A DNA stretch of 64,000 nt, taken from the NCBI RefSeq assembly GCF_050320075.1, contig NZ_CP190018.1; one strand, 5' to 3'. Below, in pieces: positions 1-5,181 of this stretch; position 1 is the first letter of the stretch, and each line of letters opens with the position of its first letter. A program made the position numbers and the translations under genes. The notes under the pieces are model-generated. The model saw nothing but the letters and a program-made list of their open reading frames with translations. It was not told the origin of the DNA and ran no database searches. This DNA comes from Escherichia coli (GTDB lineage: Bacteria; Pseudomonadota; Gammaproteobacteria; Enterobacterales; Enterobacteriaceae).

Positions 1-212
1 TTTCCGCATTGGCGATTGCAGAGGCTAAAGGGAAAATTAAAAATAACGAAGTTGACGTTGTTTTACTTGGCCCGCAAGTTCGCTTTCAGAAACCAGAGAT
101 TGAAGCTGTTGCACAGGGGAAAATGCCTGTAGCTGTTATCGAGATGAAAGACTATGGCACCATGAACGGACAGGCAGTTCTTGAATTTGCGATGAAACTA
201 CTGCAAGAGTAA
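1..212 (+). CDS. PTS lactose/cellobiose-family EIIB component (5'-truncated by window edge)
   Basis: ORF in frame 3 runs from the window edge to the stop at 210-212; C-terminal motif DVVLLGPQVRF...MKDYG is typical of ChbB/CelA-type EIIB; directly followed by EIIC and EIIA genes. Confidence 0.7.
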   Translation, partial: SALAIAEAKGKIKNNEVDVVLLGPQVRFQKPEIEAVAQGKMPVAVIEMKDYGTMNGQAVLEFAMKLLQE

Positions 213-326
213 GAATCTAATATTATTAAACTATTACCTGAACTAACTTTTCACACATCATAAAATGGATATGGCATACATGCTTTATTGGGATGTATAA
301 ATATCCAGAACAACAGGTATAAAAAA

Positions 327-1649
327 ATGGGATTAATGACCTCATTCGAACGTGGAATGGAACGTTTTCTTGTTCCAGTTGCTATCAAGTTAAACTCACA
401 AAAACATGTTGCAGCGGTGAGAGATGGATTCGTTTTTACGTTTCCAATTATCATGGCAAGCTCATTAATTATATTAATTAACTTTGCCATATTATCGCCC
501 GACGGCTTTATTGCCGGGCTGCTGCATCTGAACAGCGTTTTCCCCAACCTTGAAAAAGCACAAGCTATTTTTACTCCGGTAATGAATGGCTCTGTAAATA
601 TCATGTCAATTATGATTGCTTTCCTGGTCGCCAGAAATATGGCGATTAGCTATGAGCAAGATGATCTTTTATGCGGATTAACGGCAATAGGAGCATTTTT
701 TATTGTTTATACGCCATATCAGATGATAGATGGGCAAGCATTCCTGACGACCAAATATCTCGGCGCACAGGGGTTGTTTGTTGCTGTTATCGTTGCATTA
801 ATCACCAGTGAAATATTTTGTCGCTTAGCTCGAAACCCAAAAATCACCATAACGATGCCGGCAGCTGTACCTCCTGCGGTATCGCGTTCATTTAAAGTTT
901 TATTGCCAATATTTTTTGTCATGGTGTTCTTTTCCGCACTTAATTATTGCCTGACACTGATATCCCCGGCAGGATTAAACGATCTCATTTACAAATTAAT
1001 CCAGACGCCGCTCAAACATATGGGAACGAATATCTTTGCGGTAATTATCCTGGGGGCTGTGGGTAATTTCCTGTGGGTGCTGGGGATCCACGGACCTAAT
1101 ACCACCTCGGCAATTCGAGAAACTGTTTTTTCTGAGGCTAATCTGGAGAATCTCTCCTGGGCCGCTCAACACGGCACTACCTGGGGCGCGCCATATCCGA
1201 TTACCTGGACTTCTATTAATGATGCATTCGCCAACTGCGGCGGTTCAGGTATGACGTTGGGGTTATTGTTGGCTATTTTTATCGCGTCTAAGCGTGCGGA
1301 ATACCGTGATCTGGCAAAAATGTCGTTTATCCCCGGTATTTTCAATATCAATGAACCGATAATGTTCGGCCTTCCTATTGTACTTAACCCCATCATGATG
1401 GTGCCGTTTATTCTGGTTCCCATTGTTAACTGTGCCATTGGTTACTTCTTTGTTTCGATGGAAATTATTCCACCGGTTGCTTATGCCGTGCCCTGGACTA
1501 CGCCCGGACCTTTAATTGCTTTCCTCGGAACCGGGGGAAACTGGCTGGCGTTACTGGTGGGTTTTTTATGTTTAGGTGTGGCGACAATGATCTATTTACC
1601 TTTTGTTATTGCCGCCAACAAGGTCAATAACTTAACAACTAACGGATAA
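327..1649 (+). CDS. PTS lactose/cellobiose-family EIIC permease
   Basis: 440-aa polytopic membrane protein from ATG at 327 (ORF track 288..1649); ChbC/CelB-like sequence; located between EIIB and EIIA genes. Confidence 0.85.
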   Translation: MGLMTSFERGMERFLVPVAIKLNSQKHVAAVRDGFVFTFPIIMASSLIILINFAILSPDGFIAGLLHLNSVFPNLEKAQAIFTPVMNGSVNIMSIMIAFLVARNMAISYEQDDLLCGLTAIGAFFIVYTPYQMIDGQAFLTTKYLGAQGLFVAVIVALITSEIFCRLARNPKITITMPAAVPPAVSRSFKVLLPIFFVMVFFSALNYCLTLISPAGLNDLIYKLIQTPLKHMGTNIFAVIILGAVGNFLWVLGIHGPNTTSAIRETVFSEANLENLSWAAQHGTTWGAPYPITWTSINDAFANCGGSGMTLGLLLAIFIASKRAEYRDLAKMSFIPGIFNINEPIMFGLPIVLNPIMMVPFILVPIVNCAIGYFFVSMEIIPPVAYAVPWTTPGPLIAFLGTGGNWLALLVGFLCLGVATMIYLPFVIAANKVNNLTTNG

Positions 1650-1676
1650 TCCCATTTACACAGGAAGGAGATGTTG

Positions 1677-1988: not shown

Positions 1989-2043
1989 TTTTTTCCTCCA
2001 GTGCGATAGCTGGAGGAAATTATTACACTCTTAAGGATAAGTC

Positions 2044-3717
2044 ATGAATATAAAGACGATTAACGTCAGCCTTTTGTCTTTTTCTATTATTACAGCATTG
2101 TTTCCGTTGAACGCGTTGGCAACAAAATTAACCATTGAGCAGCGCCTTGAACTGCTTGAAAATGAATTGTCGCAAAATAAACAAGAGCTGAGAGCAACAC
2201 AGAATGAACTGGGGGTATATAAATCCCGACTTTCGACCTTACAAAAAAGTATTACGGAAAATAAATACAAATCAGCCTCACTTGCTGAAATATCAGCGAC
2301 ATCTCCCGTCGCTGATAACATCAAAAATGAAAACGGTGAACAGAACTCGTCTGCCGCAGCGCATACTATAAATGGATCGCAGCAAGTTGCCGTTATTGAA
2401 AGTAAAGGCGACAAAACCACTATCGAAAGCGTGACCCTGAAAGATATCAGTAAATATATAAAGGATGATATTGGGTTCAGCTATCAGGGGTACTTCCGCT
2501 CAGGCTGGGGTACTGGTAATCACGGCTCACCACAAACTTATGCAGCGGGTTCTCTGGGACGTTTTGGTAACGAGATGAGCGGTTGGTTTGACCTGACCTT
2601 AAATCAGCGTGTTTATAATCAGGACGGTAAAACGGCAAATGCGGTCGTTACCTATGATGGCAACGTGGGTGAGCAGTATAACGATGCCTGGTTTGGTGAC
2701 AGTGCCAATGAAAATATCATGCAGTTCAGTGATATTTATCTGACAACGCGAGGTTTTTTACCCTTCGCGCCAGAGGCAGACTTCTGGGTAGGCAAACATA
2801 AACTCCCGCAATATGAGATCCAAATGCTGGACTGGAAAACCTTAACCACGGATGTCGCTGCGGGTGTGGGGATTGAAAACTGGGCACTTGGTGTAGGACT
2901 GTTTGATATGTCCTTAAGCCGTGATGATGTCGATGTTTACTCTCGTGATTTTACGCGTACCAGTCAGATGAATACCAATTCTGTGGATGTTCGTTATCGC
3001 AATATCCCGTTATGGGATGATGCAACATTATCATTAATGGCTAAATATTCTGCACCAAATAAAACGGATCAACAACAAGATAATGAAAATGACGACAGTT
3101 ATTTTGAAATGAAAGATAGCTGGATGCTGACTTCTGTTTTACGGCAAAACCTGCAACGCGATACGTTTAATGAATTTACGTTACAGGTTGCCAATAATTC
3201 CTATGCCAGCAGTTTTGCCAGTTTCTCAGATGCCAGTAACACGATGGCGCATGGTCGCTATTACTATGGTGACCATACCAATGGGATCGCCTGGCGTTTA
3301 ATCTCTCAGGGCGAGATGTATCTTACTGACAATATTATTATGGCTAACGCGCTTGTCTATTCTCATGGCGAAGATGTTTATAGTTATGAAAGTGGCGCTC
3401 ATAGTGATTTTGACAGTATTCGCACCGTAGTAAGACCGGCCTGGATCTGGAATACATGGAATCAGACGGGGCTTGAATTAGGCTGGTTTAAGCAACAGAA
3501 CAAAACACAGCAGGGTGTAACACTAAATGAATCGGCTTATAAAACGACACTCTGGCATGCATTGAAAGTGGGTGAAAGCATTTTAGGTTCACGACCAGAA
3601 ATTCGCTTCTATGGAACGTATATCAATATTCTGGATAACGAATTATCTAATTTTAAGTTTAATGAGAACAGCAAAGACGAGTTTATGGCCGGCATCCAGG
3701 CGGAAGTCTGGTGGTAA
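2044..3717 (+). CDS. Carbohydrate-specific outer-membrane porin (LamB/ScrY/BglH family) with N-terminal coiled-coil extension
   Basis: 557 aa; signal peptide [26 protein letters not shown]; heptad-like coiled coil ([25 protein letters not shown]); aromatic-rich beta-barrel body ending in ...EVWW; embedded in the PTS/glucosidase cluster. Confidence 0.75.
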
Positions 3718-3741
3718 TCTATTTTAGTTAAGGAGTTGTGT

Positions 3742-5181
3742 ATGTCAGGATTTAAAAAAGGTTTTTTATGGGGCGGCGCGGTAGCCGCGCATCAGTTGGA
3801 AGGTGGCTGGAATGAAGGAGGAAAAGGCATCAGTATCGCTGATGTGATGACTGCTGGCGCTCACGGTGTGCCGCGTGAAGTGACAGAAGGCGTTATCGAC
3901 GGACTTAATTATCCCAATCATGAAGCAATTGATTTTTATCATCGCTATAAAACAGATATTCAGTTATTTGCCGAGATGGGATTCAAATGCTTTCGAACTT
4001 CCATTGCCTGGACACGAATCTTTCCGCAAGGTGACGAACAGGAGCCGAATGAAGAGGGTTTAAAATTTTAAGATGATCTGTTCGATGAATGCCTGAAGCA
4101 GGGAATGGAACCTGTGGTGACGCTTTCGCATTTTGAGATGCCTTACCATCTGGTGACAAAATATGGTGGCTGGCGAAACCGTAAACTGATCGACTTTTTT
4201 ATCCGCTTCGCATCAACGGTCTTCACGCGCTATAAAGAAAAAGTAAAGTACTGGATGACGTTTAACGAAATCAATAATCAGGTGAATTTCAGCGAAAGCC
4301 TGTGTCCATTTACTAATTCCGGTATCTTGTATTCGCCAGAGGAAGATATCAATGAGCGCGAACAAATAATGTACCAGGCGGTACATTACGAGTTAGTTGC
4401 CAGTGCCCTGGCGGTACAGACTGGAAAATCGATCAATCCTGAATTTAATATCGGCTGTATGATCGCCATGTGCCCCATCTATCCTCTGACGTGTGCACCC
4501 AACGATATGATGATGGCCACGAAAGCGATGCATCGTCGTTACTGGTTTACTGATGTTCATGCGCGTGGATATTATCCGCAACATATGCTGAATTACTTTG
4601 CCAGGAAAGGATTCAACCTCGATATCACACCAGAAGATAATGCGATTCTTGCCAGAGGTTGTGTCGACTTTATCGGCTTTAGCTACTACATGTCTTTTAC
4701 GACACAATTTTCGCCAGATAACCCGCAACTGGATTATGTTGAGCCACGAGATTTGGTCAGCAACCCTTATATCGATACATCCGAATGGGGATGGCAAATT
4801 GATCCGGCAGGGCTACGTTATTCACTCAACTGGTTCTGGGATCATTTCCAGTTGCCGCTGTTTATTGTCGAAAATGGATTTGGTGCGGTTGACCAGAGAC
4901 AAGCTGACGGCACGGTGAACGATCACTATCGCATTGATTACTTTGCTTCCCATATTCGGGAAATGAAAAAAGCCGTTGTTGAAGATGGTGTTGACTTAAT
5001 TGGCTACACACCGTGGGGCTGCATTGACCTGGTTTCTGCCGGAACAGGGGAAATGAAAAAGCGCTACGGAATGATTTACGTCGATAAAGACAACGAAGGG
5101 AAGGGAACGCTGGAACGGATACGTAAAGCGTCGTTTTACTGGTATCGGGATCTCATCGCCAACAATGGCGAAAATATTTGA
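3742..5181 (+). pseudogene. Family-1 glycoside hydrolase (6-phospho-beta-glucosidase, BglA/AscB-like) interrupted by in-frame TAA at 4069-4071
   Basis: Two same-frame ORFs (3736..4071 and 4105..5181) together give a full-length GH1 protein; conserved FLWGGA.AA.Q.EG N-terminus and ENG motif (FIVENGFG); stop falls where homologues have Tyr (…GLKF*DDLFDEC…). Confidence 0.8.

Follow-up and report, generated by a model that had tools for sequence, protein, structure and literature searches.

Four cryptic beta-glucoside operons of Escherichia coli, bgc, chb, asc and bgl, are listed in PMC4488073. PMC3585215 describes bgc as a five-gene operon with separate IIB, IIA and IIC subunits of a phosphotransferase system (PTS) and a phospho-beta-glucosidase, BgcA, and cellobiose, arbutin and salicin are reported as its substrates in PMC3585215 and PMC4488073. 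In strain CFT073, the six colinear genes c1955-c1960 are annotated as 'PTS system, cellobiose specific' (PMC2831201). In this study, a stretch of 64,000 nucleotides from E. coli (contig NZ_CP190018.1), called the window below, was analysed, and the PTS gene cluster with its own outer-membrane porin gene, found next to marB at positions 1-5181, was compared with these operons. The bgc operon was reportedly described in strain i484 in 2009 by Neelakanta, Sankar and Schnetz (Appl Environ Microbiol 75:2284) as a cryptic, CRP-dependent operon with the gene order bgcR and then bgcE-F-I-H-A, of which BgcH is the porin. It is called 'cryptic' because its expression is normally too low for growth. With a promoter-up mutation it is reported to allow growth on cellobiose, arbutin and salicin at 28 degrees C, in dependence on CRP and BgcR. 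The same authors are said to have found it mainly in B2 and extraintestinal strains and also in E. albertii, with homologues in Klebsiella, Enterobacter and Citrobacter. The genes c1955-c1960 of CFT073 are probably the bgc operon.

Three separate genes for PTS subunits of the Lac/cellobiose family, in the order IIB-IIC-IIA, were found by open reading frames (ORFs), Pfam and NCBIfam, and they are followed within the operon by a porin gene and by a gene of glycoside hydrolase family 1 (GH1), which is interrupted here by a TAA codon. The initial annotation, made from the letters alone, had placed the same elements at the same coordinates and assigned the PTS to the lactose/cellobiose family, and both points were confirmed. 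The IIC protein matched the lactose/cellobiose-family model TIGR00410 of NCBIfam with 338.9 bits against a cut-off of 236, and the IIA protein carries the motif VHAQDHLM. Over positions 1-5500, the window is 100% identical to the chromosome (NZ_CP123240.1, 2575051-2580550) of YZLc1-3, an E. coli strain from chicken faeces, and the sequence 5' of position 1 was read in that genome. There, the IIB gene starts 99 bp before position 1 and encodes a full protein of 103 amino acids, whose N-terminus, MKKILLVCAAGMSTS, includes the active-site Cys. A divergent regulator gene of the GntR family (HutC/UTRA type) lies on the opposite strand, 198 bp upstream of the IIB gene, and the gene order to the left of the window is eamA, the GntR regulator and IIB. 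Thus, the regulator that had been expected beyond the window edge is indeed located there. Orthologues of the bgc genes with 75-99% identity occur in thousands of genomes, and dN/dS was 0.02-0.14 for all genes in every comparison; as judged by these comparisons, the ORFs of the cluster are real genes and not chance ORFs.

The genome of CFT073 has only one such six-gene locus, in which all six genes are intact, at the same site between eamA and marB, with 96-98% nucleotide identity. Because its gene content and order match those of the described operon, the region is very probably the bgc beta-glucoside/cellobiose operon of E. coli, bgcE-F-I-H-A, with the divergent GntR/HutC-type bgcR just outside the window. 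The cluster is therefore already known and not new, as bgc was characterised in 2009. The locus in the window shares the gene set, order and species with the published operon and the eamA-marB site with the CFT073 copy, and differs from the published operon by a nonsense codon in bgcA that is private to the window strain. In addition, a copy in E. albertii and relatives in other genera, which we found independently, agree with the distribution reported in 2009. Several points weigh against this identification. The porin name BgcH, the divergent arrangement, the CRP dependence and the equation of bgc with c1955-c1960 come from secondary sources. Only generic names, and no 'Bgc' name, were found among the cluster members of five proteins. 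A CRP consensus candidate in the bgcR-bgcE spacer has two mismatches and is not significant alone. Finally, in PMC3585215, the names BgcF and BgcI for IIA and IIC are reversed as compared with the usage followed here. A literature search by gene name (bgcA, bgcH and others) returned unrelated acronyms only.

The other operons of this group were compared with the locus. The bgl operon of K-12 (bglGFBH) is also a cryptic aryl-beta-glucoside PTS with its own porin, and BglH is 53% identical to BgcH, the N-terminal extension included, while BglB is 50% identical to BgcA. However, bgl has a single fused EIIBCA protein of the glucose family (BglF) and the antiterminator BglG, whereas bgc has three Lac-family subunits and a GntR-type activator. 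A bgl-type operon was rejected from the type of the regulator and from the split of enzyme II into Lac-family subunits. The chb operon of K-12, which is cryptic for cellobiose, has separate Lac-family IIB, IIC and IIA subunits as in bgc. It contains no porin gene, is regulated by ChbR of the AraC type and encodes a GH4 enzyme, ChbF, instead of a GH1 enzyme. Membership in chb was rejected, as the chb equivalog models scored below their cut-offs, and asc was considered and rejected as well. Among the equivalog-type models of NCBIfam, those most similar to IIA and IIC do include N,N'-diacetylchitobiose models, as would be expected for a PTS of the chitobiose or lactose type, a paralogue of chb or lac, in place of a beta-glucoside system. 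However, these scores are far below the cut-offs (282 versus 760 for IIC and 105 versus 148 for IIA), and the regulator is of the GntR type, not the AraC type of ChbR. The hydrolase is a GH1 6-phospho-beta-glucosidase and not of the GH4 ChbF or LacG type: the intact BgcA allele of CFT073 gave 1035 bits with NCBIfam NF007154 (6-phospho-beta-glucosidase; cut-off 624), and BgcA resembles K-12 BglB as given above. An assignment to chitobiose or lactose is thus highly improbable, and we use the bgc names for the features in Table 1.

Table 1. Features of the bgc locus and its borders. Positions are those of the window; RefSeq gives the bgcF start at 327.
Feature	Position	Strand	Evidence or remark
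Left boundary of the 6286-bp variable segment	1051 bp before window	.	inside last three codons of eamA
bgcE, PTS EIIB of Lac/cellobiose family, 3' two-thirds	1-212	+	Pfam PTS_IIB E 4e-8 (9-212), NCBIfam TIGR00853
bgcF, PTS EIIC permease, 440 aa	327-1649 (ORF from 288)	+	Pfam PTS_EIIC E 7e-46
bgcI, PTS EIIA of Lac/cellobiose type, 103 aa	1677-1988 (ORF from 1671)	+	Pfam PTS_IIA E 1e-31, RefSeq coding sequence
bgcH, outer-membrane sugar porin, 557 aa	2044-3717	+	Pfam LamB and Sugarporin_N
bgcA, GH1 6-phospho-beta-glucosidase pseudogene	3742-5181 (ORFs 3736/3742-4071 and 4105-5181)	+	Pfam Glyco_hydro_1, both halves
Premature stop TAA in bgcA (Tyr110, TAT to TAA)	4069-4071	+	comparison with CFT073 allele; RefSeq 'internal stop'
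10-bp GC-rich hairpin between convergent bgcA and marB	5208-5231	.	RNA fold -18.8 kcal/mol, z -3.2
Right boundary of the 6286-bp variable segment	5235-5236	.	two bases from marB stop codon
marB, flanking core gene outside operon	5238-5456	-	Pfam MarB E 1e-34, RefSeq

The porin was described in the initial annotation as a ScrY-like glycoporin with an N-terminal coiled-coil extension. BgcH matched the LamB model PF02264 over all of its positions (1-378 of 378) with 276.5 bits, against a threshold of 25.1 (E 9e-82), and its N-terminal extension matched Sugarporin_N, PF11471, with 29.2 bits against a cut-off of 25.7. The nearest characterised relative is BglH of K-12 (53% identity over 541 residues, extension included), and the extension opens with LT(I/V)EQRLELLE as in BglH, while the identity to ScrY/LamB-type porins is only 16-23%. 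When the single sequence was searched against the PDB by phmmer, no porin match was obtained even at E <=10, and only coiled-coil noise with weak tropomyosin-like matches appeared; because of this result, BgcH is regarded as distant in sequence from the solved structures. With a profile of 38 BgcH homologues, matches along the entire barrel were obtained to maltoporin/LamB (E 1e-116) and to ScrY (E 3e-44); since LamB-like sequences are part of this profile, the better score of LamB than of ScrY carries no meaning. In the AlphaFold (AF2) model, with a pLDDT of 83.5 and values of at least 90 for 361 residues, the predicted layout begins with a signal peptide (about 26 residues), followed by a long helix at 31-76 (pLDDT 84-93), a linker of about 65 residues (about 77-142) predicted to be disordered, and a beta-barrel at about 145-557. 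The top five PDB matches of this model by Foldseek were maltoporin and ScrY (E 2e-25 to 6e-16; TM 0.75-0.79, normalised to the target). BgcH thus shares the barrel fold and the Pfam family with the ScrY/LamB porins (PDB 1a0s/1a0t, 1mal and 1mpr), and an N-terminal coiled-coil extension of the ScrY type, represented by Sugarporin_N and the helix 31-76, but differs from them by the low identity and the long linker. The description as 'ScrY-like' is right for the fold and the architecture, and 'BglH-like' is the precise label.

From the protein families, BgcH would form a channel of the LamB/BglH type for facilitated diffusion of beta-glucosides over the outer membrane, and a phosphorelay of EIIA, EIIB and EIIC would take up and phosphorylate the sugar at the inner membrane. 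BgcA would then convert the 6-phospho-beta-glucoside into glucose-6-phosphate and glucose or the aglycone. Transcription would be under the control of BgcR and CRP, as suggested by the families and the published description. The initial annotation went further, and concluded from the dedicated porin that the substrate is an oligosaccharide too large for general porins. This conclusion does not follow, because the reported substrates are disaccharide-sized and well under the limit of the general porins. The exclusion limit of OmpF and OmpC is about 600 Da, while cellobiose, arbutin and salicin are about 270-340 Da, all below 350 Da. It is true that PTS operons rarely include a porin gene, and that LamB and ScrY let longer oligosaccharides through; for these reasons, cellodextrins or further beta-linked oligomers that exceed the size limit of general porins could be considered as imported substrates. 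On the other hand, besides the size of the reported substrates, the closest relative, BglH, belongs to an aryl-beta-glucoside operon, and mono- and disaccharide glycosides are the substrates of both Lac-family EIIC permeases and GH1 phospho-beta-glucosidases, so that such a large substrate is quite unlikely. Specific porins such as LamB and BglH help mainly at low substrate concentration, and BgcH would more plausibly raise the flux at low external concentration.

We compared the bgcA gene of the window with the intact allele of CFT073. The catalytic residues Glu175 (NEI) and Glu377 (ENG) are present in both alleles. In the window, the reading frame is interrupted at codon 110, and the TIM barrel encoded by the downstream ORF of 358 amino acids is missing its first quarter; the stop in the GH1 gene seen in the initial annotation is thus a single in-frame TAA. 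An exact 61-mer spanning this TAA was found in 2 of the 5426 complete E. coli genomes, and the codon is TAT in CFT073; therefore, the inactivation is recent and essentially private to the strain. A single-base difference with a 61-mer common to only two genomes could also arise from an assembly or sequencing error, in which case the operon would be intact in the strain. However, the change is a substitution, whereas the usual long-read error is a homopolymer indel, it stands in a finished RefSeq assembly (version.2), and the identical 61-mer with the stop is present in the second genome. Other bgc genes are independently inactivated in other strains, so that decay is to be expected here as well. 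An error therefore has little probability. A strain without BgcA would still be able to import and phosphorylate the substrate, but not to cleave it by the enzyme of its own operon. The phospho-beta-glucosidases BglA, AscB and BglB might serve as stand-ins for the lost BgcA.

To determine how widely the operon is distributed, presence was scored as at least 80% of a 5.5-kb query, including marB, found as one colinear piece. The cluster was present in 2493 of the 5426 complete E. coli genomes (46%), and nearly all genomes without it matched only the marB end of the query. As these genomes carry the cluster and K-12 lacks it, its description as accessory is correct. The operon is thus far less restricted than in the picture reported in 2009, in which it belonged mainly to B2 and extraintestinal strains. 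When seven segment-bearing genomes were inspected, six intact genes were found in five of them, the GH1 nonsense codon in one (the window strain) and a stop in the EIIC gene in one. In E. coli FDAARGOS_1268, an internal stop is located in the EIIC gene (locus 1826-3148), and the other five genes are intact. In E. coli ETEC4075 (NZ_CP122652.1, locus 7213-7474), the end of the bgc EIIB gene is fused directly to a 3'-truncated marA by a natural deletion, in which the EIIC, EIIA, porin and GH1 genes, marB and a portion of marA have disappeared; ETEC4075 is therefore without an intact MarA activator. A few of the cluster matches were labelled plasmid, and at least one of these (NZ_CP134663.1) is a record of 4.9 Mb in the plasmid collection, evidently a mislabelled chromosome. 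There was no sign of a plasmid-borne bgc among the matches.

The site of the operon was then compared with that of K-12. In MG1655, only 30 bp separate the convergent genes marB (b1532) and eamA (b1533), the cluster is absent, and a K-12-like genome has the same arrangement, in agreement with the statement in the initial annotation that eamA is the neighbour of marB in K-12. The junction comparison with the K-12-like genome showed that a variable segment of 6286 bp stands in place of 38 bp of K-12 sequence. The bgcA and marB genes are convergent, with 56 bp between the 3' end of bgcA and marB, and the hairpin in this interval is probably a terminator. The empty site of K-12 has its own, different hairpin between the convergent genes. 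A repeat search found no direct repeats delimiting the segment, and no insertion sequence (IS) element, integrase or tRNA is annotated at the segment in RefSeq. The G+C content is 42.7% in the segment and 47.5-48.8% in the flanks. A scan for promoter and terminator consensus sequences gave results no better than those from shuffled sequences, and the Rfam scan of the whole window gave 0 matches.

Other genera were surveyed by a porin scan with one genome per species, followed by tblastn with the six Bgc proteins, EamA and MarRAB. In this survey, the complete six-gene module adjoining marB was found only in Escherichia, including the E. albertii type strain, and a second E. albertii contig, 99.5% identical to the type-strain locus, shows eamA on the other side. 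Complete modules at unrelated chromosomal sites were found in Citrobacter, Erwinia psidii and two subspecies of Salmonella enterica, salamae and diarizonae; in the latter two, the module is flanked by cysE and a gene for a SpoU methylase. A different arrangement, with the GH1 gene upstream on the other strand, was seen in Raoultella, Klebsiella, Cedecea, Ewingella, Buttiauxella and some Enterobacter. An older transfer of the module between genera as a unit is evident from this distribution. The Kluyvera version lacks EIIA and GH1 genes, and its porin gene is followed by one for a HAD-type phosphatase. The locus of Kluyvera georgiana and relatives (6266-11531) encodes GntR, IIB and IIC, then a porin with 75% identity to BgcH, and lastly a phosphatase of the HAD/Cof type; no EIIA or GH1 gene lies within 9 kb, and this variant may represent a different sugar-phosphate pathway on the same transporter and porin. 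The second E. albertii contig (Logan SRR21391058, 9001-11037) carries an in-frame deletion of 1.1 kb that fuses the porin to the C-terminal part of GH1 in an ORF of 678 amino acids, whereas both genes are intact in the type strain; a few E. coli assemblies contain similar porin-GH1 fusions.

Between E. coli lineages, the nucleotide identity was 96-98% for the genes of the segment, and eamA and marB were alike (97%). As compared with E. albertii, the identity was 80-84% for the segment genes and 84-90% for the flanks, and the synonymous divergence was 0.8-1.9 and 0.45-0.9, respectively, values that are near saturation and should not be over-read. The low dN/dS ratios given above indicate that bgc is under purifying selection where it is kept. 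The possibility that bgc is a recently acquired genomic island, and that the empty site of K-12 is ancestral, has some points in its favour: the G+C content of the segment is lower than that of the flanks, the operon is patchy in E. coli, and the modules at unrelated sites in Citrobacter, the Salmonella subspecies and Erwinia mean that it moved between genera at some time. However, the module also occupies the eamA-marB site in E. albertii, and the segment is about as diverged in nucleotide identity as the flanking core genes, with a synonymous divergence as high or higher, which excludes a recent import. The absence of an integrase, IS element, tRNA and flanking direct repeat also speaks against an island, and the left breakpoint in the last codons of eamA and the unrelated 38-bp filler at the empty site are equally compatible with a deletion. 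Recent acquisition is therefore unlikely. A mobile genomic island was rejected on the lack of mobility genes, tRNA and delimiting repeats and on the clean junctions. Most likely, bgc has been at the eamA-marB site since before the split of E. coli and E. albertii, and was lost or damaged repeatedly. A loss is also most likely for K-12, because E. albertii has the operon at the same site, the divergence is roughly that of the flanks and dN/dS is low. Thus, the accessory status of the cluster in E. coli stands, but its origin is most likely loss from an ancestral locus and not insertion, and the eamA-marB junction of K-12 probably marks a deletion and does not represent the ancestral state.

Several other features were observed near the mar locus and in the rest of the window. 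The dN/dS of marB was far above that of its neighbours marA and marR (0.03-0.15): values of 0.4-1.9 were obtained within E. coli, and of about 0.2 in the comparison with E. albertii, but marB is a short gene that gives noisy values. In E. coli K207-3 (locus 11310-11904), a pair of a RelE/ParE toxin and a helix-turn-helix antitoxin, absent from the window and from MG1655, lies in the marR-marC spacer of an otherwise K-12-like region. An autotransporter gene of 5.4 kb ('ECSE_1600 family') is located between lsrK and hipB (about 27841-33261). Directly after hipBA, at about 35233-37808, a gene for a SIR2-family NAD-dependent protein is followed by a frameshifted ISNCY transposase remnant, and then by an accessory block of oxidoreductase and LysR genes; the hipBA-adjacent SIR2 block may be a small accessory or defence-type islet. 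At about 45054-49436, the ydeQ-side fimbrial operon is disrupted, with the usher truncated by IS1 (about 47499-48196) and the adjacent subunit gene partial.

Because the operon was characterised in 2009, its detection here has little discovery value. By the identification, genes that RefSeq leaves without a name ('carbohydrate porin', 'PTS sugar transporter subunit IIC') gain a name and a link to the literature. What is added to the known operon is its prevalence of about 46% among complete E. coli genomes, wider than first reported, the kinship of its porin with BglH, the evidence for ancestral presence and purifying selection, and the private nonsense mutation. The operon is repeatedly inactivated beside the clinically relevant marRAB, with one natural deletion running from bgcF into marA. 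It is conceivable, although rather doubtful, that bgc is an ancestral Escherichia operon under purifying selection, not a decaying relic, and that its real substrate or inducer is other than those reported. If so, BgcH would possibly serve to take up, at low temperature outside the host, a short cello-oligosaccharide or a beta-glucoside from plants or the environment as the real substrate, and growth on cellobiose, arbutin and salicin would reflect side activities of the system.

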